Source: Mustelus asterias
Lineage: Eukaryota
Length of the DNA stretch: 64,000 nt
Assembly: GCF_964213995.1 (NCBI RefSeq)
Contig: NW_027590123.1
Span: forward strand, 124,001 to 188,000
Direction: 5' to 3'
The notes below the pieces were generated by a model, which searched no databases, was not told the origin of the DNA, and saw only the letters and a program-made list of their open reading frames with translations. This document shows positions 3,283-54,312 of the stretch, piece after piece (the first letter of the stretch is position 1; every line of letters starts with the position of its first letter). The position numbers and the translations under genes are program-made.

Positions 3283-3690
3283 CACTTTACTCACAGACAA
3301 TGGACCAAGCTCCGCGCAGCCACTGACACCAGGCCCGGACTCTGATTGGCTGGAGGACCAGCGTCCATCCGGTCCTCCACGCGTTGCCATTGGCTAATCT
3401 ACCGCATGTGGACAATGAGTGGGCGGAACCCGAGCCCACGTGAGGATGGGCGGGGCTTTGACCGCCAGCTGCGCTGACCTGCTGTCCAATCCGCAGTGTG
3501 CTGCTTCTGTAACCAGTGATATTGCTGCCAATGGGACACTGTGTGCTGGGAACGCCCCTCTGAGTCATTGTGACGGCACAATGGAGCCCTGCCTGAATCA
3601 GCCAATAGCAATCACTCTACTCCGCGGTGACGTCTCCGGGTTCAGGCGCGCGGACCCGGGAGCCCCGCCCCCACCCATTGTTCCCCCTGT
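3283..3690. promoter_or_regulatory. CpG-rich promoter/first exon of ZNF-1
   Basis: CpG-rich; ATTGG/CCAAT and GGGCGG boxes; dyad at 3351-3379; minus-strand GTGAGT donor at 3294-3289; reverse-complement homolog of ~49130-49500. Confidence 0.7.
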
Positions 3691-5380: not shown

Positions 5381-6034
5381 TAATTTTATCAATAAGTTTC
5401 TTGTTCTTAGTTTCCAAATAGCAGGTAAGAGCTCTGATTTTTCACTGGCCATGCTTGGGTAGGATTATAACCATTAGAATCTACTCTCAGAGGTCTGCTT
5501 TTCAGTCCAGTGCGACTTGGAGTATACCGTCACTTCACTGAATATCGGATCACAAGTCCCTCACAGTTCTGATCACAAATTTGGGATAAAATAATTTAAA
5601 CAATGCCTGAGAACGCTTTTTAACTAACTATCTACCACTGTTTGTTGATTGGTCAGACCCCCTTTTTACAGATTCAGGAATCTCAGCCACTGAACACCAG
5701 CCGGTCCTGGAATAAGTTTAATTCTAACTCATTCTGAGTAAATATTCTCACCAGGTCCTCTGTCGGGGCCCTGCGAAGCAGCTTTAATGGTCTGTGATTG
5801 CAGAAACTGAGCAGTCACAGGAATGTGGTCAAGATAGTCCAGTCCCATAATGCCTCACATTCAATCTGCAGTCCTTCAATTATAACAGAATATGTGGCTG
5901 TATGTAGCTGCCTCGGCCATGGTCAACCCCAACACTGCCTTCCTGAACTGCTACAATGCCTGAGGTGTAAGTACACCGTAAGAAGTCTCAAAACACCAAG
6001 TTAAAGTCCAACAGGTTTATTTGGTAGCAAACGC

Positions 6035-6069
6035 CACTAGCTTTCGGAGCGCTGTTCCTTCATCAGGTG
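6035..6069 (-). ncRNA. Minimal hammerhead ribozyme motif
   Basis: Reverse complement reads CAC-CTGATGA-A-GGAAC-agc-GCTCC-GAAA-GC-TA-GTG. Confidence 0.65.
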
Positions 6070-6120
6070 AGTGGGAGTTCTGATTATAAAAAATCCTGTT
6101 TTGTGAACAGAACTCCCACT

Positions 6121-6155
6121 CACCTGACGAAGGAGCAGCGCTCCGAAAGCTAGTG
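6121..6155 (+). ncRNA. Minimal hammerhead ribozyme motif
   Basis: CAC-CTGACGA-A-GGAGC-agc-GCTCC-GAAA-GC-TA-GTG, with stems I and II fully paired. Confidence 0.75.
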
Positions 6156-7007
6156 GCGTTTCCTACCAAATAAACCTGTTGGACTTTAACTTGTTGTCAG
6201 ACTTCTTACTGTGTTTACCCCAGTCCAACACCAGCATCTCCAGGTTGTGTAAGTACATCCACAGTGCTGTGAGGGAAAGATTTCCAGCTACACATTCCAG
6301 ACTTTCACTGGACTGTAGGTGGATACCAGATTGAGATACTCCATTCAACCATACCCAAGGTGAGTTATTCCAATTCCTTTATTGTCCAGGACAATATATT
6401 CACAATATCTTTAAAACAGAATTTAAACATTCCCATTTGATTTCAGGTACGAACATATTCTGTTAGTTTGTTCTTTATTGTCAATGTCAGGCTGGGGTTG
6501 TTCCCCTTGGAGCAAAGGACAAGATTCTGACAGGTTTAGATAAGGTGGACAAAGAAAAGCTGTTCCCATTAGCTGATGGGAGAAGGAGAGGGGGTCACAG
6601 ATATAAAGTTTCGGGTCAGAGATGTAGGGGGGGATGTGAGGAAGAATATTTTGATGCAGCGAATGGTAATGACCTGGAACTCGCTGCCTACGAGGGTGGA
6701 GGAAGTGGAGACAATAAACAATTACAAAGGAAATTGGATGGGCATTTGGGAGGTTTCAAACAGAAATGCTGACTAAATATCTCTGATCTTCCTCACACCC
6801 TGTCACCCTGTGATCCTAGAGAAATTTGAAACCATGTATTCGCAACAAGACTCAAAGAGCATCAGCCCACTGGAGGCCAAGTTGTGAGACTGGTCAGTCC
6901 AGCAGAAAGAAACCCTCCGACCCTCCCCATTGACCAACTGTGAGAATGAACAAAATGCAGTCCTGGATGTAATTGAGAGCAGAAACAATAACAGCAGAAT
7001 CCAACCC

Positions 7008-7675
7008 TGTGAACTTGTTGGTGTCTCAGCAGCTGGGATGAAATTCTGAACCCTTTTTATACACTCAGCAGGTGGACAGTTTCTCCCCAGTGTAACCTCT
7101 CTGATGTCTCAGCAGGTGGGATCACTGAGTGAATTCCTTCCCACACTGAGAGCAGGTGAATGGCCTCTCCCCATGTGAATTCGCTGGTGTCTCTGCAGGC
7201 TGGATGAAGCTCTGAATCTCTTCCCACACTGAGAGCAGGTGAATGGCCTCTCCCCAGTGTGAACTCGCTGGTGTTTCCGCAGGTTGGATAACTGAGTGAA
7301 TCCCTTCCCACACTGAGAGCAGGTAAACGGCCTCTCCCCGCTGTGAACTCGCTGATGTGTCCGCAGGACGGATGACCGAGTGAATCCCTTCCCACACTGA
7401 GAGCAGGTAAACGGCCTCTCCCCGCTGTGAACTCGCTGGTGTCTCTGCAGGTCGGATGACCGAGTGAATCTCTTCTCACACTGAGAGCAGGTGAACGGTC
7501 TCTCCCCAGTGTGAACTTGCTGGTGTGCCCGCAGGACGGATGACTGAATGAATCCCTCCCCACACTGAGAGCAAATGAATGGCCTCTCCCCAGTGTGGTT
7601 GCGCCGATGAGCATCCAGCAGACATGGGGCTCTGTATCCCTTCCCACAGTCCGCACATTTCCATGGTTTCTCCAT
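7008..7675 (-). pseudogene. ZNF-2, truncated C2H2 gene (6 intact fingers, then a frameshift and stops)
   Basis: ATG at 7675; 1-bp deletion near 7172; downstream fingers contain TGA; upstream donor is decayed and the promoter is replaced by CR1/Tx1 sequence. Confidence 0.75.
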
Positions 7676-8161
7676 GGTGCAGGTGTCCTTACCTCTCTCT
7701 TGGGTGGACAATCAGCTGAAGCCTCGTCCACACACAGAACACGAGTACAGTCTCTCCCCACTGTGAATGGTGTGATATTTATTCAGGCTGTGTAACTGGT
7801 TAAAGCTCTTCAGTCAGTGCACTGGAACACACTGACTCGAGTGTGGCCATGTGTTGATGCTTTTTCAGTCAGATTGATGTTTGAAATCTTTTCAAATTTC
7901 CTTCCAGATTCAATGGCCGATGATATTCACGTCCCAAGGAATATGACTCTGCCAGATCTCGATGTGACGTTCGAGATTTTAGCCTGTGATTCCTCTTTCA
8001 ATATCCTGTAAAACAAGTTGACACAAGTCATCACTGTCAGTACAGGATCGAAATTCAGAACAGCCAATTCCAGTTTCTATGGAACATTCTTTCTCTCTCA
8101 TTCCCCAAAAGCTGTAAATCTCCATCCCACACACTCTCCCTCCATTCTCACTCTGCTGTAT

Positions 8162-8221
8162 CTAATATTCACCCTCCCAATTCTCCTGAAGGTGCTGATT
8201 GAGGCTGATTGACAGATCCAT
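8162..8221 (-). other. 19-codon micro-ORF (MDLSISLNQHLQENWEGEY*)
   Basis: Identical to 50011-50070. Confidence 0.6.
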
Positions 8222-8469
8222 GCTCACTGCTTCCTGTCCTGGACAGAGAGAGCTGAAAATTTCCATGCAAACTGCCAGACAGATCTATGCCCATATGACT
8301 GGAGTAAAAATGTGTGGAATATACCGACTGGATTCACTTCCTTTCCCTTCAGTTGCTGCAAGTCCCCAATTTCCCCCAGAATGAGAAAAGAAATGGAAAG
8401 GGGGAAACATTGATTTCCTCCCAGGTGTTGCCATCTTTTTAGGTCAAACCAAATAAACTAACTCAGATC

Positions 8470-8775
8470 AAAGACTATTTCCTCGGGTGGATGGAGCTAT
8501 TACAAGGGGGCATAACTATAGGGTTCGTGGTGGGAGATACAGGAAGGATATCAGAGGTAGGTTCTTTACGCAGAGAGTGGTTGGGGTGTGGAATGGACTG
8601 CCTGCAGTGATAGTGGAGTCAGACACTTTAGGAACATTTACGCGGTTATTGGATAGGCACATGGAGCACACCAGGATGATAGGGAGTGGGATAGCTTGAT
8701 CTTGGTTTCAGATAAAGCTCGGCACAACATCGTGGGCCGAAGGGCCTGTTCTGTGCTGTCCTGTTCTATGTTCTA
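8470..8775 (+). mobile_element. CR1 LINE 3' end
   Basis: TRGHNYRVRGGRYRKDIRGRFFTQRVVGVWNGLP followed by a TTCTATG tail. Confidence 0.8.
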
Positions 8776-8779
8776 AGTC

Positions 8780-9600
8780 AGGACAAAGTAAAAGGGGCAG
8801 CTCCCCAAAAAGGAGGGGGAACAGCCCGAACAGAAATCAAAATACAAAGGAAACTTAAAAACATCAAATTAAAATGTGATTATTAGGGTCAATAATGCAC
8901 CCCAACCCCTGCGGTGCCCAGCGGGCGCGGAAGTCGTCAACCGCGCCCGTGGACACCGCATGCTCCCTCTCCAGGGACACCTGGCCGCGAACGTAGCCGC
9001 GGTAGAGGGGAAGACAGTCAGGATGGACGGCCCCCTCGATCGCCCGCTGCCTGGACCGGTAAATGGTGCGTATCGCCAGGAGCAGGTTCACGAGGAGGTC
9101 GCCATCCCGACCCTCCCCTCTCCGCACCGGGTGTCCGTAGATCAGGAGCATGGGACTGAAGTGCAAACAAAACACCAATAAAAGGTTCTTTAGGAAAACA
9201 TAAAGGGAGTGCAGCCTAAGACACTCAACATAGACATGGTCCACGGACTCCACAAGGCCGCAGAAAGGGCAGTCTTCGGAGCCCGTGAACCAGTGAATCC
9301 TACGGTTGTGCGGAACTGCTGCATGCATCACCCTCCACCCCAGGTCCCCGACGTAATTGGGGGAGATCCCTCCATAGAGGGACCTCCAGCGGGGACCTCC
9401 GCTGCCCGGCGGCAACAAGGCCCGCCAAGGTGTATCCGGGCGACAGGCGAGGAGGCAGTAGTGGAGGGTGTGCAGCAGCAGCCCGCACAGGAAACGCCTC
9501 CGCGCAGTAGAAAAAGGCACGGAGGGCATTTCCGCGAGGCGGCTCAGGCTGTGGGGCACCTCACCCAGGCTTTGGGCCAATGTGGAATTCCGTCCAAACA
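8780..9600 (-). mobile_element. L1/Tx1-clade LINE 3' fragment (C-terminal zinc knuckle)
   Basis: ORF 8864-9580 contains W..LY...DLGWRVMH...CPFCGLVESVDHVYVEC; the same 3' end occurs at 57165-57360. Confidence 0.75.
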
Positions 9601-9624
9601 GGGGAACGCTCGGGCGGGATCAAG

Positions 9625-13803: not shown

Positions 13804-14982
13804 TCACTCGTGAACTTGCTGGTGTCTCAGCAGGTGGGATGAAACTCTGAATCTCTTCCCACACTGAGAGCAGGTGAACGGCCTCTCCCCAGTGTGAACT
13901 CGCTGGTGTGCCCGCAGGTTGGATAACCGAGTGAATCCCTTCCCACACTGAGAGCAGGTGAATGGCCTCTCCCCAGTGTGAACTCGCTGGTGTGTCCGCA
14001 GGGTGGATAACCGAGTGAATCCCTTCCCACATTGAGAGCAGGTGAATGGTTTCTCCCCAGTGTGAACTCGCTGGTGTGCCCGCAGGTTGGATGACTGAGT
14101 GAATCCCTTCCCACACTGAGAGCAGGTGAACGGCCTCTCCCTAGTGTGAACCCGCTGGTGTGTCAGCAGGCTGGATGACCGCGTGAATCCCTCCCCACAC
14201 TGAGAGCAGATGAATGGCCTCTCCCCAGTGTGAACCCGCTGGTGAGCCCGCAGCTCGGATGACCGAGTGAATCCCTTCCCACACTGAGAGCAGGTGAACG
14301 GTCTCTCCCCAGTGTGAACTCGCTGGTGTATCCGCAGATCAGATGACCGAGTGAATCTCTTCCCACACTGAGAGCAGGTGAATGGTTTCTCCCCGGTGTG
14401 AACTCGCTGGTGTTTCTGCAGGCTGGATAACTGAGTGAATCCCTCCCCACACTGTGAGCAGGTGAACGGCCTCTCCCCAGTGTGAACTCGCTCGTGTGTC
14501 AGCAGACTGGATGACCGAGTGAATCCCTTCCCACACTGAGAGCAGGTGAATAGCCTCTCCCCAGTGTGAACTCGCTGGTGTGTCCGCAGCTCAGATAACT
14601 GAATGAATCCCTTCCCACACTGAGGGCAGGTGAATGGCCTCTCCCCAGTGTGAACTCGCTGGTGTCTCTGCAGGTTGGATAACTGAGTGAATCCCTTTCC
14701 ACACTGAGAGCAGGTGAATGGCCTCTCTCCAGTGTGAATTCGCTGGTGTCTCTGCAGGTGGGATGACTGAGTGAATCCCTTCCCACACTGAGAGCAGGTG
14801 AATGGCCTCTGCCCAGTGTGAACTTGCTGGTGTATCCGTAAGCTGGATAACTGATTAAATCCCTCCTCACACTGACAGCAGATGAACAGCCTCTCCCCAG
14901 TGTGGCTGCGCCGATGAGCTTCCAGCAGGGATGGGTATCTGTATCTCTTCCCACAGTCCACACATTTCCATGGTTTCTCCAT
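13804..14982 (-). CDS. C2H2 zinc-finger protein ZNF-3 (14 fingers)
   Basis: ATG at 14982 in CACCATGG; 392 aa = 14 x 28; ends HE-TGA; acceptor TTTTACAG with exon start at 15333. Confidence 0.9.
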
Positions 14983-15426
14983 GGTGCAGGTGTCCTTGCC
15001 TCTCTCTTGGATGGACAATTAGTTGAAACTTCGTCCACACACAGAACAAGATTACAGTCTCTACCCGCTGTGAATGGTGTGATATTTATTCAGACTGTGT
15101 AACTGGTTAAAGCTCTTAAGTCAGTGCATTGGAACACTCTCACTCCAGTGTGGCAGTGTGTTGATGCTTTTTCACTCACACTGACATTTCAAATTTTTTC
15201 AAATCGACAGACTGGACAATCATTTCTCCTTCTGGATTCAAAGTCCGATGATATTGAGTTCCCAAGGAATATGACTCTGCCACGTCGAGACGTGACGTTT
15301 GAGATTTCGACCTGTGATTCCTCTTTCAATATCCTGTAAAATGAGTTTCCAAAAGTCATCAGTGTCAGTACAGGATAGAAATTCAGAACAGACAATTTCT
15401 ATGGAACATTCTTTCCTCTCTCATTC

Positions 15427-16570
15427 AGAGGGTGGGTTCTCCCCCGCACATGCACAGCTTCCCCTCTCCCTCGCACATTTTGCAGTCCCGGGCCGGGGGG
15501 AGGGGGAGATCACTGAGCAGCTTCTCGCTCTGGCCGGAGCCGCCAGCCGGTTGCCTGGAAACCTTGGCTCGATGTGGTGCAGGGGGAGGGGAACAATGGG
15601 TGGGGGCGGGGCTCCCGGGTCCGCGCGCCCGGGCCTGCGCACTGGAACCCGGAGACATCACCGCGGAGCAGAGTGATTTCTATTGGCTGATTCAGGCAGG
15701 GCTCTATCGTGGCATCACAATGCGGAAGTTGGCCAATGAGCTTCAGAGTGAAACTTTGCTCTCCGATCACATTCCATTGTGACATCACACCCTCACCCAT
15801 TCCATTGTGACGTCACACCCTCACCCAGTCCATTGTGACGTCACACCCTCACCCAGTCCATTGTGACGTCACACCCTCACCCAGTCCATTGTGACGTCAC
15901 ACTCTCACCCATTCCATTGTGACGTCGCACCCTCACCCAGTCCATTGTGATGTCACACCCTCACCCATTCCATTGTGACGTCACACCCTCACCCAGTCCA
16001 TTGTGACGTCACACCCTCACCCATTCCATTGTGACGTCACACTATCACCCATTCCATTGTGACGTCACACCCTCACCCATTCCATTGTGACGTCAGGGCT
16101 TCCCTCTCCGATCACAATCCCTGCCGGCCTCCCACATGCAGCCTCAATGGCGGCAGTCAGCCCGGGTCTAACACTACAAGCTGCCGCTCCATTTGGTACA
16201 AAGGGGGGGACCGGGAAGTTCATTTCCGGGGTTTGGGTTTGAACAACATGTTTACAAAGTCTCTCCACCCACCCGCCACATTTATCATTCCCCGCACGCC
16301 GCCCTCTACCTCGTATTGATCTCGCTTCCAAGTTAAAACCGGCCGTCCGTCGCCATTACCCGCACTGCGCATGCTTCAGGTTCCGCCCCTCATTCCCTCT
16401 GATTGGTTGGAGGACCAGCCGCTCCCGTTCGGTCCTCCAGCCCCGCCCCCTCTTCCTATTGGTCGGGAGCTGCCGTCAATCAGTCCCCGGGCATTGTGAT
16501 GCGGAGCATGCGCAGTGTCATTGCTGGCCTTGGCGCTTGTTTGTCCCGGAGAAGCGGAGTCAGCGTTAGG
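15427..16570. promoter_or_regulatory. CpG-island bidirectional promoter between ZNF-3 (-) and ZNF-4 (+)
   Basis: CpG-rich; CCAAT and GC boxes; AATGGCGGC (YY1-like) at 16146; TGCGCATGC (NRF1-like) at 16366; dyad at 16408-16439. Confidence 0.75.
15771..16095. repeat. 28-bp minisatellite (~11.6 copies) carrying TGACGTCA (CRE) palindromes
   Basis: Unit A(T/G)TCCATTGTGACGTCACACCCTCACCC; 9 of 12 cores are perfect TGACGTCA. Confidence 0.95.
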
Positions 16571-16927: not shown

Positions 16928-17205
16928 ATAAGAAGACTCACAACGCCAGGTTAAAGTCCAACAGTTTTATTTGGTCGCAAAAGCCACTCGCTTTCGGAGC
17001 GCTGCTCCTTCGTCAGGTGAGTAGGACTTGTGTTCATAAACGGGGCATATATATTGACACAAACTCAATTTACAAGATAATGGTTGGAATGCAAGTCTTT
17101 ACAGGTAATCAAGTCTTAAAGGTACAGACAATGTGAGTGGAGAGAGGGTTAAGCACAGGTTAAAGAGATGTGTACTGTCTCCAGCCAGGACAGTTAGTGA
17201 GATTT
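16928..17205 (-). mobile_element. Penelope-like terminal-repeat fragment with a hammerhead motif (16985-17019, core U changed to G)
   Basis: CACAACGCCAGGTTAAAGTCCAACAG...; homologous to the ends of 53239-54312. Confidence 0.75.
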
Positions 17206-17710
17206 CCACATCAAGAACTGAACCCAGACAGGAGAGGGAGGGAGAAAACTGGGAGTGGAGGGAAGAAATGGTGGAGATGTTGAGATGGGTTTGGATTTCA
17301 GTCCAGGGGAGGAGGTAGAGTGTGTGGGACGGGGATTTATAGATTTGGGGGAACAAGAGAGGAAAATATGTTCCAGAGAAACTATGAATTGTCTGTTCAG
17401 AATTTCTATCCTGCACTGACAGTGATGGTATTGGTAAACTGTTTTTGCAAGGTATTATGAAGCAGGATTTCCAGATGTGAAACTCAAACCAAACTTCACA
17501 TCAAGATCTGTTTCAGTGATTTGATTCGTCAGAAACTGAATATCGTCAGCCTTTGTCTCCAGAAGGAGAAATGTTTATTCTGTCTGCGGGCAAAGATTTC
17601 AAACATCAGTGTGACTGAAAAAGCACCTAGACACACACACCTGTGAGTTTCCAATGTGCTGAATGTGGAAAGTGGTTTAAAAAGTCTGAAAAATAATCAC
17701 ATCATTCTCA

Positions 17711-19021
17711 GTGAGTAGTGACCCGACTCATATTCTGTGTAAACGTGGCTTCAACTCATCATCCAACCTGGAGTCACACGAGGATACCCGCTCCACAGAG
17801 AAACCATTGAAATGTGGGGACTGTGGGAGGGGATTCAATTACCCGTCCGAATTGGATATTCATCGTCGCATTCACACTGGAGAGAGGCCGTTCACCTGCT
17901 CTGAGTGTGGGAAAGGATTTGCTTACTCATCCAGCCTCTATACACACCGGCGTGTTCACACCGGTGAGAGGCCATTCGCCTGCCTCGAATGTGGGAGGGG
18001 ATGTCATGCTATATCAAGCCTCCTGATTCACCGGCAGGTTCACTCCGATCAGAGACTGTTTCAGTGTTCTGAATGTGAGAAAAGCTTTAAAAGCACAAAG
18101 GACCTCCTGAGACACCAGCGCACTCACATGGCGGTGAGACCGTTCACCTGCTCAGTGTGTGGGAAGGGATTCACTCAGTCATCCCACCTTCTGACACACC
18201 ATCTTGTTCACACTGATCAGAGACCATTTCAATGTTCTGACTGTGAGAAGAGATTTAAAAGTAAAAATGATTTACAAGTCCATCAGCGCACTCACACTGG
18301 GGAGAAGCCATTCACCTGCTCCGTGTGTGAGAGGAGATTCGGACGTTTATCCCAGCTGCAAACACACCAGCGAGTTCACTCTGATAAGAGACCATTTCAG
18401 TGTTCTGACTGTGAGAAGAGCTTTAAAAGTAAACAGGATTTGGTGACACACCAGCGAGTTCACACTGGGGAGAAACCGTTCACCTGCTCGGTGTGTGGGC
18501 TGGGATTCACCCATTCATCCCACTGTCTGAGACACCAGCGAGTTCACACCGGGGAGAAGACATTTATTTGCTCTGTGTGTGGGAAGGGATTCACTGATTC
18601 GCCCCACCTTCTGATACACGAGCGAATTCACACTGGGGAGAAACCCTTCGCTTGCTCCACATGTGGGAAACGATTCACTCAGCCACCCCAGCTCATTGCA
18701 CATCAACTGGTCCACACTGATCAGAGACCTTTTAAGTGTTCTGACTGTGAGAAAAGTTTTAAAAGCACGAAGGACCTGCTGAGACACCAGCAAATTCACA
18801 CTGGGGAGAGATCATTCACCTGCTCCATGTGTGGGAAAAGGTTCACTCAGTCATCCCACCTGCTGAGACACCAGCAGATTCACACAGGAGAGAGATCGTT
18901 CACCTGCTCCGTATGTGGGAAGAGATTTGCTCGGTCAGCCAATCTGCTGAGACACCAGCAAGTTCACAAGTCACTGCAGGGATTGGATTCTGCTGTTGCT
19001 GCTAACCCCATGCAGGACTGA
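17711..19021 (+). CDS. C2H2 zinc-finger protein ZNF-4 (14 fingers; no AUG before codon 140)
   Basis: Open 436-codon frame; the family start TMEKP reads STEKP; the family stop has become TCA, adding a short tail. Confidence 0.7.
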   Translation: MSSDPTHILCKRGFNSSSNLESHEDTRSTEKPLKCGDCGRGFNYPSELDIHRRIHTGERPFTCSECGKGFAYSSSLYTHRRVHTGERPFACLECGRGCHAISSLLIHRQVHSDQRLFQCSECEKSFKSTKDLLRHQRTHMAVRPFTCSVCGKGFTQSSHLLTHHLVHTDQRPFQCSDCEKRFKSKNDLQVHQRTHTGEKPFTCSVCERRFGRLSQLQTHQRVHSDKRPFQCSDCEKSFKSKQDLVTHQRVHTGEKPFTCSVCGLGFTHSSHCLRHQRVHTGEKTFICSVCGKGFTDSPHLLIHERIHTGEKPFACSTCGKRFTQPPQLIAHQLVHTDQRPFKCSDCEKSFKSTKDLLRHQQIHTGERSFTCSMCGKRFTQSSHLLRHQQIHTGERSFTCSVCGKRFARSANLLRHQQVHKSLQGLDSAVAANPMQD

Positions 19022-20320: not shown

Positions 20321-21099
20321 CATGTTCACATTGTGAGAGTTGGAGTTTGTTTCTACTGACTTTCATTTCCCATAAATCTGAGCTGCAGCTTAATCTACAG
20401 AATAGAATCAAATAAATCTTGATGATAAACTGATTGATCAGCCAGAGTCTAACTGAATGACAGAGCAGACTGGAAGGGCTGAACCTCCTCCAGTTCCTGT
20501 GTAGTTTCTCCCCAGGATTCTCCCACTCTCTAACTCTGCTCCAGTGCTGGTTTCTGATGAAGTCTCTTCTCCCCAGGTCTCCCATCACTTTCCATTCATC
20601 AGCTGGTGTCTGAGTCCAAGTTTACCAGGAGCAGGAGGAGGTCATTTATCCCTCGAGCCTGTTCTGTCATTCACTGAGGTCAGGGCTGATCTTGAGACCT
20701 AACTCCATTTACCCAGATATTGTTTTAATCTTGACTTCCCCAGTCTGTTACAATGTGATTTAAAAATAACTTTCATTTCCATCAGACCGTTAATGTAGGA
20801 GAGTGTCCCAAAGTGAATCTCAGAAACATTAACTGACACTGAGTCAAAGAAGGGGATGTTAGGAGGGCTGACTAGAGACTTGGTGCAGTGTAAAGGGTTC
20901 ATGTTAAATTTGTAAATATTCTACACAGTGATGTATGATCAGATGACAAGAGCGTGCTGAGAGATGGTTCTCTGTGAAGCCTCGTGCTGATCTTGTATTG
21001 TACATAGTTCGAAGAATGTGCAATTAAAGGTTACGTTTATCAGCAGCCTTGCCTCCAGCAGTCTCTGTAGATTCTGACCAATTTCCTTCTTCACTTGAT

Positions 21100-25883: not shown

Positions 25884-26629
25884 GTTCAAAATATGACAAT
25901 GTTCAGGTTACGATAAATTGGTCGACTTTATCAGCCCCTGATGTGATGTTTGGTTTGTTTCCCAATTGCAAATCGTCCTCTTCTAAACCCTGTGAAATTG
26001 ATTTGAAATAGAAAAAAAGGAGTGAGAAAGAACCTACAAAAACACAAAGGCAGGTTGTGAAATTGAGCTGAATGAATCTGATAATATGTGGGGCCAGCAC
26101 GAGGAAAAAGTGACCATGAAACATGCTTGATTCAATTGATGCACTCATGTGCTTCAGGGAAGGAAACTTGCCAACTGGTCTGGACTCTGCACTGAATCTC
26201 CAACAAAGCTTCCCACCCAAGTCCTATGCCCATAACCCCACATATTTATCACGTTACTTCCCCTAATATCTTGGGGCACTAAGAGGCAATTTAGCATGGC
26301 AATCCAGCTAACCTGCACATCATTGGACTGAGAGGAAACCGGAGCACCTGGATGAAAACCCACGCAGACAAGAGGGGACAGAGTCACACATGGCTGGAGC
26401 TGTGAGACAGCAGTGCTAACAACTTGCCACCCCTTTTCAAAGAACTGCAACAATTTTGAGGAATATCTAGGAATATTATATTTTGTTAAAGAGACTGTAT
26501 GATACAAATGATTGTATCGTTGCTCTGCCTCATCAGTAAGAAATTGGAAGTGAAAGAGCGAAGCAGTTTGATGGACAAGTTGTTCACATTCTGTCACTCG
26601 GGCGAATTTCAAAATCATTGCCCCTCATA

Positions 26630-27110
26630 AAGAGGGCGGCTGCGCATGCGCTTCTAATAGAGGGCTATTGCTCCTAATAAAGATGGCAACCGCGCATGCG
26701 CCATATTGGTAGTGCCCGGATAAAAATGGCGGCAGTTAACCCGGGTTTGTCGCGGGAAGAAAGCAGCGGCCTTGCTCTGTGCAAACGGCCGGGACCATCT
26801 TCGGATAGCGGTCGGTTTTTTTTGCAGAGGTTTGTTGTTCATGATTACGAAGCCTCTCTAATCCCTCCGCCTGATTCATCGCTGCCTCCGCCCGCCATTC
26901 CCACTTTTTCTGATTGTGGATTCGAGAAATCCTCTCTCCATCGCCATTAATCACACTGCGCATGCTTCACTCAGCCCCGCCCCTCATTCAGTCTGGTTGG
27001 AGGACCAGCCGCTGCCGCTCGCTCCTCCAGCCCCGCCCCTTCCTGCTATTGGACCGGAGCTGCCGTCAATCAGTCCCCGGGCATTGTGAGGTGTCAGGTG
27101 AGAGGTCAGT
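26630..27110. promoter_or_regulatory. CpG-island bidirectional promoter between ZNF-5 (-) and ZNF-6 (+)
   Basis: TGCGCATGCGC (NRF1) at 26641; AAAATGGCGGC (YY1) at ~26723; GC boxes; dyad at 26998-27029; CAG/GTGAGA donor at ~27098. Confidence 0.75.
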
Positions 27111-27208: not shown

Positions 27209-27450
27209 GTGTAAGAGTTTTAACAACACCAGGTTAAAGTCCAACAGGTTTATTTGGTAGCAAATACCATTAGCTTTCGGAACACTGCCCCTTCGTCAGA
27301 TGGAGTGGAAATCTGCTCTCAAACAGGGCACAGAGCGCTCTGAAAGCTAGTGGCTTTTGCTACCAAATAAACCTGTTGGACTTTAACCTGGTGTTGTGAG
27401 ACTTCTTACTGTGTTCACCCCAGTCCAACGCCGGGCATCTCCACATCATG
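27209..27450. mobile_element. Palindromic Penelope-like terminal-repeat insertion with a hammerhead (27267-27303, -)
   Basis: Inverted arms; reverse complement reads CCAT-CTGACGA-A-GGGGC-agt-GTTCC-GAAA-GC-TA-ATGG. Confidence 0.75.
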
Positions 27451-37713: not shown

Positions 37714-38654
37714 GATTAAAATCCAATGATATTCAGGGTACGATAAAATAATTGACTCTCAGATTTTGATGTGATGTTTAGTTTCCTGTTCCACGACTGC
37801 AAACCTTCCCTTCTGTTACTCTGAAAAATTGATTTAAAACAGAAAAAAGGAAGTGAGAGAGAACCCCCCAAACACAAAGGCACGTTGTGAAATTGAGCTG
37901 AATGAATCTGGGGCCGGCACGAGAAGAAAGTGACCATGAAAGCTGCTGGATTGTTGTAAAAACCCAACTGATTCACTAATGTCCTACAGGGAAGGGAACC
38001 TACCACCTGGTCTGGACAAGACTTTGGCCTCTGAGGGAGGAGAAGGAGGGAGAGAGGGAGGAAGAGAGAAGTGGAGAGGCAGGAGGCGAAGAAGAGGGAT
38101 TTTATACATAAACCACTCAGCCAGAACTTTGACCGAATCATTAAACACTGAACCTCCTCACCTCAAAGGACCAGGGCAGCGGGATTATGTGAACACTATC
38201 ACCTGCAAGTTCTCCAACACATACACTGCACTGACTTGTCTGACAATCCACTTGCATATTAGGAAGTACAAAGCCATTGCCTTCAGTCTCTTCTACAAAC
38301 TCCATCCCCTGGACATGGACTCCATCCCTCCCACTGGTAATGGTCTGAGGCTCAACCAGACTGTTCACAGCCAGGGAGTATTTTGTGTAACTGAGATGAG
38401 CTTCCAACCACATATCAACATCACCCAGAGCATCTATTTCCACGTCACTGACGTCATTGACTCCACCCCAGTCTCAGCTGACCTGCGACTGAAACAATCA
38501 TTCTTTCCTTTGTTACCTCTAGATGTAATTATCCAAACGCACTCCCAGCCGGCCTCCCACATTCAACCTCTCTGTAAACTTGAGCTCATCCAAACCTCTG
38601 CTGCCCATGTGCTTACTCACATCAAGTCTTGTTCACCCATCACCCCTGTGCGCA

Positions 38655-39072
38655 CTACAAAAGGAACTACAAAAGGTTGTGAATGTAGCCCAATCCATCA
38701 CGCAACCCAGCCTCCCATCCATTGACTCTGTCTACACTTCTCGCTGCCTTGGCAGAGCAACCAGCATAATTAAGGATCCCACGCAACCCAGACATTCTCT
38801 CTTCCACCTTCTTCCTTTGGGAAAAAGATACAAAAGTCTGAGGTCACGTACCAACCAACTCAAGAACAGCTTCTTCCCTGCTGCTGTCAGACTTTTGAAT
38901 GGACTTACCTTGCATTAAGTTGATCTTTCTCTACACTCTAGTTATGACTGTAACACGACATTCTGCACTCTCTCGTTTTCCTTCTCTATTTGTATAGCTT
39001 TGTATAGCACGCAAGAAACAATATTTTTCACTGTATGTTAATACATGTGACAATAATAAATCAAATCAAAAA
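38655..39072 (+). mobile_element. Rex1/Babar LINE 3' end inserted in an L2 fragment (~38140-39530)
   Basis: ELQKVV...LKNSFFPAAVRLLN; closely similar to 21915-22325. Confidence 0.75.
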
Positions 39073-42020: not shown

Positions 42021-44339
42021 GTATGTGTGAAACAGAAAAATCACATCTGCAGAAATACCTGTTCCTCGAACAATATCCTTTTCCTTTGTACAGATAGTGA
42101 TTGTTTCACAACCTGATCTCCCTAGAATCTAACTCTCCTGACAATTTCACATTGGAAATTGCTGGATCCGACTGAGTTCATAAGTTTTTGCGGTTAAACC
42201 CAACCGCTTCTCCTATATCTCCATTCCAGCTCCAACTGATACAACAAGGAAAAGGGAACTGGACAAGACCCCGGAGAGAAAGAAAATGCTGGGTTGCGAG
42301 GAAAAGGCAGGGGAATGGGTCTAACTGCCTTGTCCTTGCAGAGAGCCACAAGGGTGCAACATGCTAAAGGACAGCACTTGTATTGTAATCATTCTGTGAT
42401 GCTATGAATCAATGAAAAAGGACCTGCACTGGAGGCAAGGGTCCACCCTGATATAGATTAGTTCTTAAGTAGTTCCTCTCAATTACTAGACTCAGAAATG
42501 TCTGCAATAAAATAAAAGCCCAATACTGATGCTGCTGGAAATCTGAATTAAAAAGAGCTAATATTGGAAATATTCAGCAGGTCAGGCAGTAGCTGGGGTG
42601 AGAAAGACAGAATCAATGATCCAGGGTGTGCAGAATGAACTATGTGGAATAAAAATGGTGCCAAATGTAATGTAACCTCAGAAATAGGAGAAGTGGACGA
42701 GAACACAGGAAAAACAATTCCTGACTATTCACGATACTGTGGGAAGCTGGTAAGCCAGCAGCGCATCATTCATTACAAATGGGAACCTTCTTTAGACACA
42801 ACTGGCAGAAGTGACAGTGAAATACTGAACACAGCTGAGATACACCCATTATTAGAGAGAGGAGTTAGACACTGGCCGAGAGATGATCAGGGAAAGCAGA
42901 GGTGAAACAGAGCAATGAATGCACATGGAGTCAGATCCACAGTAAAGGAGTCAGACCAGCCCCAAAGACATGGAACCTCTCACAGAGAACAAAGCTCAGC
43001 ACGAACAACTCTCAATTGAAGAACAATGGTCACAAACATACATCTGTGAAACAATTTCACTGTTATAAATTTAAACTCTCCTGTTGGAGCCTGCAGCTGG
43101 AAAGATATCAGAAACACTGGAGTCAGAGAAAAGTCTCCCAGTTGAGGAAATACCTGGGGAGCGGGGGTGATGTCACTGTGGAATTGTGGGTGTGTGATGA
43201 GATCACAGACAGGTACACAGAACATCTGGGTCTGTGCAAACCAGTGATCACCACACATTATGGAGGATGTGAGGCTCCTTAAGAGGGTGCAGAGGAGATT
43301 GACCTGAATGAATCCAGGGATTATAATTACAATGTTAGGCTGGAGAAACTGGCATTATTCTCCTTGGAGCAAAGGAGATTGAGGCAAGATTTGGCAGAGG
43401 TGTACAAATTTATGATAGGTTTAGATAAGGTAGATAAAGTTTAACTATTCCCATTACACGACAAAGATGCGCGGGTTAGGTTGATTGGCCATGCTTGAAT
43501 TGCCCCTTAGTGTCCTGAGATGTGTAGGTTAGAGGGATTAGTGGGTAAAATATGTAGGGATATGGGGGTAGGGCCTGGGTGGGATTGTGGTTGGTGCAGA
43601 CTCGATGGGCCGAATGGCCTCTTTCTGTACTGCAGGGTTTCTATGATTTCTATGACACAGATTGAAGATTTTGAAAAAGATCTACCGGGGGATATGAGGA
43701 AGAAATTTTACGCAGTGAGTGGTAATAACCTGGAACCCGATGCTTCCACTCAAAGACCGATAACATCCAGGTGCTGTTAATCGAATGGCGCTCTCAGATA
43801 TTGATGACCTTTCCATAAATCCTCTTCCAATATCCTGTAAAAGAAATTTACAAATCCCAGCACTGTCAGTTCAGAAATGCAATTCAGAAGAGACAAACAT
43901 TTTTCTTGGTATTAGTTTTGCTGGGTGTAAATTCTCCCCTTCTTACTCCCTGTAAAAGGAGTTTCCAAATCCATCACCGTCAGTCCGGGATGGAAATTCA
44001 CCATATTCTCTTCTGCTGACAGGGAGCACTGCCCACATGCCCTTCTGCACTTTGCCCAGTGAAAGTTGGTGGTCAATAACCTGGGTCTGTGATCAGGACA
44101 CATCCCACAGCTCATGCCTCGTTCATTGCCAAGGCGTGACTGGTAGCAGACTTGCAGATCTTTAGACACATGGGGAAGGACATCCCATGAGACAGTGGGA
44201 TCTGGAGAGCAGGATTTATTTTTCTTTCCTTCTCTGCCACCGCTCTGCCTCATCAATAAGACATTGGGACTCAGAGGATTGATGCAATTTGATGGACAAG
44301 TTGTCTCCATTCTGAACAATGGGAAACAAGCTCCTCCCA

Positions 44340-44835
44340 CTCGACAACTTGCCCCCTCCAAAGATGGCGGCCACGTTGCAGCCATGTTCCACATTATCCC
44401 CGTTGTACATTGGCCCCAATAAAGATGGCGGCCGTTAACCCGGACCGATCACTCGGAGCTGGAGACCCACTCAGTGCAGCTGGAGGAACCTGGAAGCTCT
44501 TTTTCGAGGATTGCGGTGACACAACATGTTTAGGAAACATCTCCGCCCGGTAGCTGGATCCATCGCTCCCTCCCATCCACTATTTTGTCCTAGATATTGT
44601 GGATCATAACAATCACCTCGCCAACCGCCATTAACCACACTGCGCATGCTTCACTCCCAGCCCGGCCCCGCCCCTCATTCACTCCCGGCTCCGCCCCTCA
44701 TTCACTCCCATTGCTTGGAGGACCAGCCGCTCCCGCGCGGTCTTCCAGCCCCGCCCCGCCCCGCCCCTCTCTCTCTATTGGTCCGAAGCTGCCGTCAATC
44801 AGCCAGACATTGTGACGATTTCAGATGGTGAGAGT
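44340..44835. promoter_or_regulatory. CpG promoter homologous to 26630-27110 (probably drives ZNF-7)
   Basis: Two AAGATGGCGGC YY1 sites (44361, 44422); TGCGCATGC at 44641; GC boxes; dyad at 44716-44747. Confidence 0.7.
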
Positions 44836-44867: not shown

Positions 44868-45270
44868 GTTAAGAAGTCTCACAACACCAGGTTAAAGTCC
44901 AACAGTTTTATTTGGTAGCAAAAGCCACAAGCTTTCGGAACAGGCTGTTCCTTCATCAGGTGGGTGGGAGTTCTGATCACAAACAGGGCACAAAGACACA
45001 AACTCAATTTACATGAATAATAATTGGAATGCGAGTCTTTACAACTAATCAAGCCTGAAAGGTACAGACAATGTGAGTGGAGGGAGCATTAAGCACAGGT
45101 TAAAGAGATGTGTATTGTCTCCAGACAGGACAGCCAGTGAGATTTTGCACATCCAGGCAAGTTGTGGGGGTTACAGATAGTGTGACATGAACCCAATATC
45201 CTGGTTGAGGCCGTCCTCATGTGTGCGGAACCTGGCTATCAGTCTCTGCTCAGCGACTCTGCACTGCCGT
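44868..45270 (-). mobile_element. Penelope-like 3' fragment with a hammerhead (44925-44963)
   Basis: End of the ORF plus the terminal repeat; reverse complement reads CCAC-CTGATGA-A-GGAAC-agcct-GTTCC-GAAA-GC-TT-GTGG. Confidence 0.8.
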
Positions 45271-45854
45271 GAACCTCCACTCCACAAACAAGCCATCCAG
45301 CCAACTGAGCTAACTCTTGTCAACATATAATAATCCCTGAAATATTAGCTATTGCCTATCTCCCATTATACCTTTTGATGCAGTTTCCCAATCCATCTCA
45401 GATACAGGATCTCATATTTTAGTTCTCTTCTGTGAGAAACACCCAGATAAATTAAACAAAAGAACCATATAAGTACCACAGCCCATCTCCATGGAAATGT
45501 CACATACTTCAGTGGGGTTCCAAACAGAATTACGAATGAAATATCTTTGAACTGACAAACGTGCTTCACTCTTGTGATCCTTGTGAAATTTGAAGACAAG
45601 AAATGTGCTCTTCCAGGCTCAAAGAGCATCAGCCCACTGGAGGCTGAGACCGGCCAGTCCAGCATCAAGAAACCCTCTGACTCTCCCCGTTGACCAACTG
45701 AGAGAATAAACAAAATGCAGTCCTGGACACAAGTGAGAGCAGAAACAATAACAGCAGAATCCAAACCCTGGAATCACTTGTGAACTCGCTGGTGTCTCAG
45801 CAGATGGAATGAGTAAGCAATTCCATTCCCACGTTGAGAGCAGGTGAACGACCC

Positions 45855-48849: not shown

Positions 48850-49600
48850 ACTCACAGATGTTGGTCTCTTTTAAGGTCAAACCAAATAAACAAACAGGAG
48901 GAAGTTTCAGTCAGTCTGAAGCGCAATCTTCTTTCACACAAAGCCCGTCCTGTGATTGGCTGGAGGACCAGAGTCCTTCCGGTCCTCCAATTCTTCCCAT
49001 TGGTCAACACCTCAGCGTGAAGGTCAGGGGGCGGGCTCTCCCCTGCACATGCGCGGTTCCCCCTCTCCCTCAGGGCCGGGTGCCTGGAAACCTTGGCTCG
49101 AGGAGGTGCCGGGGGAGGGGGCACAAAGGGTGGGGACGGGGCTCCCATGTCCGGGCGTCCGGGCCTGCGCACTGGGATCCAAGGATGTTGGCGCGGAGCA
49201 GAGTGATTGCTGTTGGATTGAGTCGTCACAATGACTCCGAGGGGCGTTCCCAGCACACAGTGTCCCATTGGCAGCAATATCACTGGTTACAGAAGCAGCA
49301 CACTGCGGATTGGGCACCAGCTCAGCGCGGCTGGCGGTCAAAGCCCCGCCCACCCCCACGTGGGCCCGGGTTCCGCCCCCTTATTGTCTACATGCGGCAG
49401 ATTGACCAATGGCAATGCGTGGAGGACCAGATCAGCCCTGGTCCTCCAGCCAGTCAGAGTCTGGGCCTTGTGTCAATGGCTGCACGAATGTTCCTCCATT
49501 GTTTGTCCAGAAAACTGCTGCCCATCCTCCTCCTCTCTCTGAACAAAGATTGAGCTTCAGATAGATTCAAACTTCCTCCTGTGGCCAACATCTGTGAGTA
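48850..49600. promoter_or_regulatory. Bidirectional CpG promoter and first exons of ZNF-8 (-) and ZNF-9 (+)
   Basis: Mirror-image GTGAGT donors (48855-48850 on -, 49594-49599 on +); two opposed CCAAT-dyad modules (48961, 49420); GC boxes. Confidence 0.8.
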
Positions 49601-50070: not shown

Positions 50071-50505
50071 ATACAGCAGAGTGAGAATGGAGGGAGAGTG
50101 TGTATGGGATGGAGATTTAGAGCTTCTGGGGATTGAGAATTGTTAGTTCTGAATTTCTATCCTGTACTGACCGTGATGGCATTTGTAAACTACATTTACA
50201 GGATATTGTGACAGGAGCATTTACTGACAGAAATCTCAGACGTGACGTTCTAGATTTGACAGAGTCACTTGATTCCTTGGGACCTGAATATCATCGGTCT
50301 TTGAATCTAGAAGGAGGAATGTTTGCCCAGTCTCACCCAAGTGAGAGTGTTCCAGTGCACTAACTGTGGAAAGAATATCAACCAGTTACAGAGGCTGAAA
50401 AACCATCACACCATTCATAGCGGGGACAGACTGTACATGTGTTTGTTGTGTCGATGAGGCTTCAACTGTTAAACTGACCTGGATTGATACAGCGAGACCT
50501 AAAAC

Positions 50506-51432
50506 ATGAAGAAACCGTGGAAATGTGGGGACTGTGAGAAGACATTCAAAGCTCCATCAGAGCTGGAAAACCATTGGCGCATTCACACTGGAGAGAGGCC
50601 ATTCATCTGCTCTCAGTGTGGGAAGGGATTCACTCAGTCAACCACCCTGCAGAGACACCAGCAAGTTCACACTGGGGAGAGGCCATTCATCTGCTCTCAG
50701 TGTGGGAAGGGATTCACTCAGTCAACCACCCTGCAGAGACACCAGCAAGTTCACACTGGGGAGAGGCCATTCACCTGCTCTCAGTGTGGGAAGGGATTCA
50801 CTCTGTCATCACACCTGTTGAGACACAAGCAAGTTCACACAGGGGAGAGGCCATTCACCTGCTCTCAGTGTGGTAAAGGATTCAGTAATTCATTCAACCT
50901 TCAGACACACCAGCGAGTTCACACTGGGGAGAGACCATTCACCTGTTCTCAATGTGGGAAGCGATTCAGTGATTCATCCAACCTGCAGACACACCAGCGA
51001 ATTCACACTGGGGAGAGACCGTTCATCTGCTCTCAGTGTGGGAAGGGATTCACTCTTTTATGCAACCTGTTAAGACACAAGCGAGTTCACACCGGAGAGA
51101 AGCCATTCACCTGCTCTCATTGTGGGAAAGGATTCAGTGATTCTTCCGGCATGCAGACCCACCAGCGAGTTCACACTGGGGAGAGACCATTCATCTGCTC
51201 TGACTGTGGGAAGGGATTCACTCTGTCATCCCACCTGTTGAGACACCAGCGAGTTCACACCAGTGAGTGGCCCTTCTCCTGCTCTCGGTGTGGGAAGGGA
51301 TTTAATGATTCATCCAACCTGGAGAGACACCAGCGAGTTCACACTGGGGAGAGGCCATTCACCTGCTCTCAGTGTGGGAAGGGATTCACTCTTTTATCCA
51401 TCCTGTTGAGACACAAGCGAGTTCACAAGTGA
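50506..51432 (+). CDS. C2H2 zinc-finger protein ZNF-9 (11 fingers)
   Basis: MKKPWKC start; 308 aa; exon start at 50202 after TACTGAC...TTTACAG. Confidence 0.9.
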
Positions 51433-53238: not shown

Positions 53239-54312
53239 AGTAAGAGTTTTAACAACACCAGGTTCAAGTCCAACAGGTTTATTAGCTTTCAGAGCGCTGC
53301 TCCTTCATCAGATGGAGTGGATATCTGCTCTCAAACAGGGCACAGAGACACAAAATCAAGTTACAGAATACTGATTAGAATACGAATCTCTACAGCCAAC
53401 CAGGTCTCAAAGATACGGACAATGTGAGAGGAGGGAGCATTAGGGAGTTGTTTGAAGGTTGTTTGCCTTCAAACAACCACACAATCTCAAACAGACCATT
53501 GTCCGCAGCAAACTACCCAGCCTTCAGGAGAACAGTGACCACGGCACCACACAACCCTGCCACAGCAACCTCTGCAAGACGTGCCAGATCATCGACACGT
53601 ATGCCATCATCTCACGTGAGAACACCATCTACCAGGCACACGGTACCTACTCTTGCAACTCGGCCAATGTTGTCTACCTGATACGCTGCAGGAAAGGATG
53701 TCCCGAGGCATGGTGCATTGGGGAAACCATGCAGACGCTATGACAACGGATGAATGAACACCGCTCGACAGGCAAGACTGTTGTCTTCCTGTGGGGGAGC
53801 ACTTCAGCGGTCACGGGCATTCAGCCTCTGATCTTCGGGTAAGCGTTCTCCAAGGCGGCTTTCATGACACACGACAGCGCAGAGTCGCTGAGCAGAAACT
53901 GATAGCCAAGTTCCGCACACATGAGGACGGCCTAAACCGGGATCTTGGGTTTATGTCACACTATCGGTAACCCCCACAGCTTGCCTCCTGGACTTGCAGA
54001 ATCTCACTGGCTGTCCTGTCTGGAGACAATACACATCTCTTTAACCTGTGCTTACTGCTCCCTCCACTCACATTGTCTGTATCTTTAAGACCTGGTTGGC
54101 TGTAGAGATTCGCATTCTAATCAGTATTCTGTAACTTGATTTTGTGTCTCTGTATGCCCTGTTTGAGAGCAGATATCCACTCCATCTGATGAAGGAGCAG
54201 CACTCCGAAAGCTAATGGCATTTGCTACCAAATAAACTTGTTGGACTTTAACCTGGTGTTGCTAAAACTCTTACTGTGTTTACCCCAGTCCAACGCCGGC
54301 ATCTCCACATCA
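53239..54312 (+). mobile_element. Penelope-like retroelement remnant (GIY-YIG endonuclease; inverted 5' and direct 3' terminal repeat)
   Basis: C.SANVVYLIRC...CIGET.QTL*QRMNEH; hammerheads at 53281-53315 (-) and 54182-54218 (+). Confidence 0.85.
54182..54218 (+). ncRNA. Minimal hammerhead ribozyme motif
   Basis: CCAT-CTGATGA-A-GGAG-cagca-CTCC-GAAA-GC-TA-ATGG. Confidence 0.7.

Follow-up and report, generated by a model that had tools for sequence, protein, structure and literature searches.

Between the head-to-head zinc-finger genes ZNF-3 and ZNF-4 of Mustelus asterias lies a tandem array built from a palindrome that contains the CRE TGACGTCA. The locus raises two questions: where the repeated unit came from, and whether a row of CREB/ATF sites in this position sets the expression of either gene. 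According to the original prediction, the array amplifies a promoter motif inside a bidirectional promoter and provides copy-number- and methylation-tunable control of both genes. We analysed it within its window, a 64,000-nucleotide stretch of contig NW_027590123.1 that holds at least ten multi-finger C2H2 frames amid reverse-transcriptase and other repeat remnants.

The array occupies positions 15770-16095 (no strand assigned), where Tandem Repeats Finder reports a 28-bp period, 11.6 copies, 94% match and 0% indels. A core scan located 12 cores spaced exactly 28 bp apart. Nine are perfect TGACGTCA, starting at 15808, 15836, 15864, 15892, 15976, 16004, 16032, 16060 and 16088, and 8/12 have the full 12-bp palindrome; the period, both core counts and the predominance of the extended palindrome are as predicted. 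The units abut without spacers, and this is the sole array of its 28-bp unit within the window. With head-to-tail units in the range of ~10-60 bp and near-identical copies, the array is a genuine minisatellite. Private differences between its units argue against a simple assembly duplication, and a T/G variant common to several units is interspersed among them (order TTGGGTGTGTTT), which is a sign of unequal exchange or conversion in minisatellites. A CRISPR array or a microbial or vector repeat was considered and rejected, there being no spacers between units and no Rfam match; comparison with 72,556 plasmids, 50,697 phages and bacterial and archaeal genomes gave no match either. Structured RNAs and tRNAs were absent from the window (Rfam gathering threshold; ARAGORN).

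Full TGACGTCA occurs 10 times in the window against 0.59 ± 0.79 expected, a count that 0 of 100 shuffles reached. Because nine of these ten are copies of one unit, a per-unit test is fairer, and in that test a full CRE appeared in 42 of 200,000 shuffled circular units. The 28-bp spacing places every third site on the same helical face (84 bp = 8.0 turns). Three cores are variant, reading TGACATCA in unit 1 (G>A), TGATGTCA in unit 7 (C>T) and TGACGTCG in unit 6 (A>G). Two CpG-deamination variants had been predicted, and units 1 and 7 fit that description, but the change in unit 6, which is not CpG decay, had been overlooked. Core CpGs are intact in 10 of the 12 units. Six private substitutions fall across the 28 columns, two at the core CpG and four elsewhere (P = 0.067 versus uniform placement; 0.047 among the five transitions alone). 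At P ~ 0.07 for two of six changes, CpG decay is not significant.

The array also has a strong tendency to fold. As paired 12-bp hairpins it reaches −58.6 kcal/mol, compared with −11.4 ± 9.5 for arrays of shuffled units, none of 200 of which folded as stably. Fold z-scores of −9.2 and −7.9 are inflated by the tandem structure, and the unit-shuffled control was therefore used instead. Such a hairpin-prone array has a mutational route to expansion without need of selection. A canonical G-quadruplex on the G-rich strand was rejected, with no short-loop motif, a G4Hunter mean of 0.72 (maximum 1.04) and only four long-loop arrangements.

Self-comparison of the window revealed two promoter families, class A and class B. 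The intact, two-armed class B reference (48855-49594, no strand assigned) consists of a donor, a dyad with CCAAT boxes, a central palindrome (49216-49233), a second dyad and a second donor, and a partial class B promoter lies upstream of ZNF-1 (3293-3688). Class A paralogues are found at 26500-27100 and 44240-44830. Homology to these copies shows the ZNF-3/ZNF-4 interval to be a chimera, in which a class B promoter remnant is fused to a class A promoter. The remnant (15425-15722, minus strand) is homologous to 49024-49233 and, inverted, to 3566-3686. It retains a GC box at 15604, a minus-strand CCAAT ending at 15686 and, in degenerate form, the 18-bp imperfect palindrome of class B (15705-15722, no strand assigned), and the homology stops exactly at 15722, ~50 bp from the array. 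A unique linker follows (15723-15769, plus strand), with an ETS-like site at 15723 and a CCAAT at 15733. On the far side of the array, the class A segment (16147-16513, plus strand) is homologous to 26726-27089 and 44425-44815 and carries a YY1-like site at 16147, NRF1-like sites at 16367 and 16506-16513, GC boxes, two minus-strand CCAAT boxes, a palindromic dyad at 16408-16439 and a single CATTGTGA at 16492. The ETS-, YY1-, NRF1-like and similar names denote resemblance to consensus sites. The class A core next to ZNF-4 is well kept (84.7% over 157 bp), and the join between class B (15425-15722) and class A (16147-16499) is taken up by the array, flanked on either side by ~50 bp of unique sequence.

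At the left junction, the end of the ZNF-3 intron is joined directly to DNA homologous to 49024, with 2 bp of microhomology. The deletion there (15425) took the left dyad, both CCAAT boxes, exon 1 and the donor, all of which the paralogue ZNF-8 has kept. A TATA box (TATAWAW or TATAA) is absent on both strands between 15300 and 17000, and the flanks of the array have CpG observed/expected ratios of 0.64 and 0.78, versus 0.36 for the window. The interval thus combines head-to-head genes with a CpG-island-like, TATA-less composition and NRF1/YY1/CCAAT/GC-box/ETS-type motifs, a motif set described as typical of bidirectional promoters (PMC3082894). The predicted location inside a bidirectional ZNF promoter stands as far as gene orientation and CpG richness are concerned, although the interval is chimeric and both of its sides are damaged. 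A bidirectional promoter would have two working starts less than 1 kb apart, and on the ZNF-3 side the ancestral core, exon 1 and donor are deleted.

Some further features of the cluster's promoters deserve mention. No promoter element of the cluster is as well conserved as a palindromic dyad (TGGAGGACC followed by its reverse complement) with flanking CCAAT boxes, which is common to both promoter classes and lies at 16408-16439, 3351-3379, 48961-48989, 49420-49448, 26998 and 44716. At 3686-3690, the ZNF-1 promoter lacks one class B arm and is fused directly to intron-like DNA, a deletion like that at 15425. A second, smaller duplication of promoter motifs is present in the class A promoter at 44 kb, where a GC-box segment (44661-44709) has undergone a 23-bp tandem duplication.

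Outside the array, CATTGTGA is found singly in promoters at 3566, 16492, 27082, 44808, 49226 (minus strand) and 15715-15722 (minus strand), and outside promoters at 20329, 57941 and 62131. The single-motif positions originally given were correct to within 2 bp, but the promoter copy at 15715-15722 had been missed. These 9 copies compare with 4.7 ± 2.4 by chance, which is not far above expectation, and the six promoter copies are paralogous, representing only two independent ancestral positions (two paralogous sets). None of the six contains a full CRE; a half-site overlaps the motif in three (3571, 44813 and 49228). The block common to the six promoter copies and the array is CATTGTGA itself, and the CRE half varies among paralogues. 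Inside the array, CATTGTGA is intact in 12/12 units, versus 9/12 for the CRE.

The closest relative of the unit is the single-copy class B palindrome upstream of ZNF-1 (3554-3585, no strand assigned), which has a half-CRE only. The unit matches the minus strand of 3569-3585 at 16 of 17 bases, a match equalled by 2 of 300 shuffled units, and elsewhere in the window it has no further relative of 17 bases with one mismatch. In the opposite orientation, almost all of the unit aligns with 3554-3580 (24 of 31 columns; 5 of 1000 shuffles). Two-unit alignments to the class B palindrome are outscored by only 2 and 5 of 1000 shuffles in the two orientations. Since the alignments are good on both strands, the source copy may have had either orientation. 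The idea that the array amplifies a promoter motif therefore survives in the 16/17 match, but the motif is not a full CRE in any of its single-copy paralogues, which have at most a half-site. An exact 13-bp direct repeat brackets the array (15759-15771 and 16104-16116, plus strand), and 0 of 1000 shuffles reach its flank-to-flank score; it is as expected from duplication or from templated insertion at a break. The array shows no poly-A tail or terminal repeats as transposon hallmarks, and there is no second close copy in the window.

Other sources of the unit were considered and rejected. A scan of 7 of the 28 unit rotations at up to 9 mismatches returned one match inside an array of the 84-bp finger repeat (46213), at 9 mismatches. 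The isolated CRE at 38449 was discarded as the single-copy ancestor, being part of a LINE-like remnant with flanks unlike the unit. Nor do the linker and right flank align significantly with the class B palindrome as additional parts of it (206-888 of 1000 shuffles).

Two separate resemblances were recorded. The right flank of the array (16107-16145) resembles part of 38400-38660 (82% over 39 bp, E = 2.8e-4). The translation of that stretch looks like the end of a broken LINE ORF2, presumably L2-like, and the window's only full CRE outside the array (38449) lies in it. The minus strand at 43150-43205 has a pair of degenerate copies resembling the unit, in which a 10-bp palindrome shows CpG decay, followed by a donor-like site; their score is 40, versus a control maximum of 38 (0 of 100). 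If this match reflects common descent, it is possible that the unit arose from an older dispersed repeat rather than purely locally.

The state of the flanking genes bears on what the array could regulate. The last exon of ZNF-3 (13804-15333, minus strand) has an intact acceptor, an exon start at 15333, an ATG at 14982 and an open frame (13804-15018) with 14 C2H2 fingers. In a selection test on ZNF-3, non-synonymous to synonymous changes numbered 14:4 in the recognition helices versus 10:8 in the framework, which is not significant alone (P = 0.29), so the test does not demonstrate that ZNF-3 is functional. The ZNF-4 open frame (17690-19021, plus strand) also has 14 C2H2 fingers. It reads ACA where five paralogues have the start ATG, and the first in-frame Met, at 18128, leaves 10 of the 14 fingers; the donor found ~15 bp after CATTGTGA in both class A paralogues is missing on this side. 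At 17440-17800 the ZNF-4 acceptor is altered relative to the paralogues, and in-frame ATGs at 17654 and 17663 lie upstream of a stop. Among the best 120 of 4,225 homologues of ZNF-4, the two highest identities are to the sharks Heptranchias (59%) and Heterodontus (55%), followed by sawshark (53%), sawfish (52%) and two amphibian matches (53%), with most others at 35-51%. Two of five N-terminal finger patterns of the cluster were matched, solely in Heptranchias and Heterodontus proteins among the same best 120 of 4,225, a pattern that points to a cartilaginous fish.

Elsewhere in the cluster, the finger arrays at 1406-2494, 7109-7711, 13804-15018 and 50503-51432 are themselves minisatellite-like, with an 84-bp period and 82-87% match. 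Recognition-helix changes are mostly non-synonymous (47:12, versus 28:30 in the framework; P = 0.0005, from 4 of 10 genes pooled after the counts had been seen). ZNF-2 (7109-8490) looks pseudogenised, with its frame out of register after six fingers, an altered donor and a promoter arm cut by a repeat insertion. The last-exon acceptor region is present in two tandem copies at 43820-44000, with no finger exon attached nearby. A 251-aa open frame at 8864-9619 (minus strand), in a CpG-rich stretch, has no Pfam match and may be the C-terminal end of a non-LTR retrotransposon ORF2. A repeat end, presumably Penelope-like, forms head-to-head inverted pairs at 5973-6214 and 27211-27409 and recurs at 16929-17215, 44870-45271 and 53870-54310; each of the three class A promoters has copies of it a short way downstream.

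Nine consensus CREs in CpG-rich DNA are expected to be bound by factor in vertebrate cells, and the array has the multiple full consensus sites of a CREB/ATF homotypic cluster (TGACGTCA in 9/12 cores). Induction by cAMP through a CRE generally needs a downstream TATA box, which the array region lacks. A working cluster would be expected within ~200 bp of a core promoter. The array sites lie farther than this from ZNF-4, at 313-593 bp from the class A dyad and ~385-665 bp from the presumed start; on the ZNF-3 side, the array is 122 bp from the remnant CCAAT. As to methylation, CpGs in paralogue pairs were kept or decayed at 34:12 in promoter versus 5:11 in non-promoter sequence (Fisher P = 0.006; three of five promoter pairs, to limit overlap, and three of six non-promoter pairs). 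Two SINE pairs left out of this comparison keep most of their CpGs (9:5 and 11:3), at lower divergence, and consequently the CpG-retention signal is soft and the argument for hypomethylation weakened.

Published measurements set expectations for such a cluster. The predicted methylation sensitivity of CRE binding is documented at the insulin promoter, where CRE methylation blocks CREB/ATF2 occupancy in vivo (PMC2735004). In synthetic CRE clusters, expression rises non-linearly to a plateau within 6 sites, mainly under forskolin and modestly without it, and output drops 1.5-2.2-fold when the sites are moved from 67-96 to 147-176 bp off the promoter (10.1101/625434). In a human genomic reporter, 1-7 CREB sites had no significant effect, and CREB homotypic clusters are rare, with 66 in the human genome (PMC6360817). 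Of 2,672 human genic VNTRs tested, 6.1% were associated with expression (PMC8024321). Tunable control of ZNF-3 and ZNF-4 is therefore weakly supported: nine consensus CREs do lie between head-to-head genes, but the lack of a TATA box, the distance and the non-significant CpG decay all count against it.

Our leading reading, which we hold tentatively and at somewhat less than even confidence, is that a promoter element was locally amplified, that CREB/ATF could bind the product, and that any effect would be modest and saturating. The array is real, and is probably an ordinary promoter minisatellite at fused promoters. In the proposed sequence of events, a class B remnant and a class A promoter were fused between ZNF-3 and ZNF-4, as homology shows. 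A ~28-bp piece with the class B palindrome would then have been duplicated beside the junction, its core being a full CRE already or becoming one by a single substitution; we consider this step likely. Owing to the self-complementary core, neighbouring units could pair as 12-bp hairpins, and slippage and unequal exchange would have carried the array to 12 copies with interspersed variants. In the last and weakest step, the CpG-island-like setting would leave the sites largely unmethylated and bound by CREB/ATF-family dimers. The array would then serve as an accessory element upstream, working in either orientation, whose effect is modest, saturating and for the most part constitutive; an effect on ZNF-3, with the CCAAT remnant near by, is more plausible than one on ZNF-4. 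It would not be a finely graded cAMP or methylation rheostat. The ancestral factor may have been one other than CREB, since a full CRE is missing from every single-copy paralogue.

Nearly as likely as this best reading is that the array is a neutral passenger in a decaying corner of a fast-turnover ZNF cluster, a possibility to which we give about one chance in three: palindromic units expand easily, bZIP sites are palindromes, and the units may look CRE-like without any selected effect. ZNF-3 is without its core promoter and exon 1, ZNF-4 is without its paralogues' ATG and first donor, and there may be nothing functional left to regulate, since both flanking genes are damaged. Damage is seen at further promoters and genes of the window as well (the second arm of ZNF-1, and ZNF-2). 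Four of the six private changes lie outside CpG and three of the 12 cores are damaged, giving no sign of CRE protection, and an association with expression is found for only ~6.1% of 2,672 tested human genic VNTRs (PMC8024321). Against neutrality stand the intact ZNF-3 frame with its 14 fingers and acceptor, the conserved class A core (84.7% over 157 bp) and the nine consensus CREs, which would be expected to bind factor in CpG-rich DNA in vertebrate cells. The opposite extreme, a copy-number- and methylation-tuned, cAMP-responsive rheostat setting both genes, appears improbable to us. It draws on the nine CREs between head-to-head genes, on the two variants of CpG-decay type, on the blocking of CREB/ATF2 by methylation at the insulin promoter (PMC2735004), on the setting of output by CRE number under forskolin (10.1101/625434) and on MSR1, a promoter minisatellite whose copy number can alter expression strongly (PMC4725990). 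However, reporter output plateaus within 6 sites and falls 1.5-2.2-fold between ~80 and ~160 bp (10.1101/625434), and the array sites are 385-665 bp off the presumed ZNF-4 start; the CpG decay is non-significant, and no TATA box is present.

It is about equally improbable that the array is itself transcribed, from a leftward start in the class A core (~16350-16390), so that it lies in the first intron or 5′ leader of ZNF-3 and acts, if at all, through donor choice or upstream ORFs. The class A dyad/CCAAT module is oriented like the left arm of class B, from which a leftward gene is driven, and between the head-to-head ZNF-5 and ZNF-6 no promoter module was found other than the class A promoter at 26.5-27.1 kb. 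On the minus strand, a strong-context ATG precedes 12/12 cores, 10 of these ATGs open 6-codon ORFs, and 10 units have a donor-like GT; an unspliced leader would have 38 upstream ATGs (19 in strong context), versus 7 (1 in strong context) with the array spliced out. The donor-like sites, however, fit 6 of 9 consensus positions only, a level common by chance in the same scan, and no leftward donor is conserved among the class A paralogues. We give even less weight to another factor reading the ancestral palindrome, whether a SOX-type HMG protein on CATTGT, which we assume to be a SOX-type site, or a lineage-specific zinc-finger protein. CATTGTGA is the part spared in every unit and invariant across the six promoter copies and the array, and variation among paralogues is confined to the CRE half, but the invariance of CATTGTGA was partly ascertained by searching for that very motif, and with 6 private changes over 28 columns, a spared 8-bp block is unremarkable. 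An extension of the amplified-element reading seems doubtful though somewhat better placed: after loss of the ZNF-3 core and exon 1, the half-CRE palindrome would have been upgraded to a full CRE and amplified twelve-fold beside the surviving CCAAT and GC boxes, as a replacement promoter restarting the orphaned but still intact 14-finger gene, with CREB/ATF and copy number as its controls.

Minisatellites that multiply the binding sites in a promoter form a familiar class, and not a new one. The human eVNTRs, such as the ZNF232 promoter VNTR, likewise place a minisatellite in the promoter of a zinc-finger gene and have been proposed to multiply factor sites (PMC8024321; 10.1101/2020.12.16.423078). 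They have been shown to be polymorphic and associated with expression (PMC8024321), whereas the present array is known from one haplotype. It also differs from them in belonging to what is probably a cartilaginous fish, and in having a unit that can be followed back to an element of a paralogous promoter. MSR1 beside the PRPF31 core promoter is likewise a repeat with a unit of tens of bases adjoining a core promoter, where copy number could alter output; it recurs at many human promoters with measured effects (PMC4725990), whereas the array here is a single one in a 64-kb window, with a CRE palindrome unit. Homotypic CRE clusters also contain several TGACGTCA in a row, and the array's 20-bp gap is within the range tested in reporters; the synthetic clusters were placed at most ~180 bp from a minimal promoter and tested to 6-7 sites (PMC6360817; 10.1101/625434). 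The array, in contrast, has 9 perfect sites in a true tandem repeat, in TATA-less DNA, far from the better-preserved core. Vertebrate CpG-island bidirectional promoters are similarly head-to-head, CpG-rich and TATA-less, with the same NRF1/YY1/CCAAT/GC-box/ETS-like motifs (PMC3082894; PMC4730256), but the array's interval is chimeric, with the ancestral core and first exon of one gene deleted.

The cluster as a whole resembles the tandem C2H2-ZNF clusters of metazoans (PMC10547256) and those of the catshark (10.1101/2024.05.23.595469), with fast-turnover multi-finger genes among transposable elements; the catshark genome has ZNF clusters of recent duplicates (10.1101/2024.05.23.595469). The word 'minisatellite' is absent from the main texts of both papers. 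In two papers with both TGACGTCA and minisatellites, the motif was found in primers (PMC13050634) and in a cited title (PMC2735004), and an HTLV-1 paper (PMC4926191) gave no passage on CRE-bearing repeats. We found no report of a natural CRE minisatellite in a ZNF promoter, or of this array, in the literature searched, which comprised main texts and few subscription journals.

Two properties nevertheless make the locus slightly more informative. CRE clusters seldom occur in nature and the effect of CRE number differs between reporter studies, for which an array of 12 natural units offers convenient test material. In addition, the origin of the repeat is open to reconstruction, since this 64-kb stretch still contains, as paralogues, both the unit's single-copy ancestor and an intact example of the promoter architecture. 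If the array rescues ZNF-3 expression, it would illustrate one way for rapidly evolving ZNF clusters to change how duplicated genes are regulated. If the replacement-promoter reading is true, the locus would be a natural instance, and one that can be traced, in which a tandem repeat rebuilt a promoter out of its own components.
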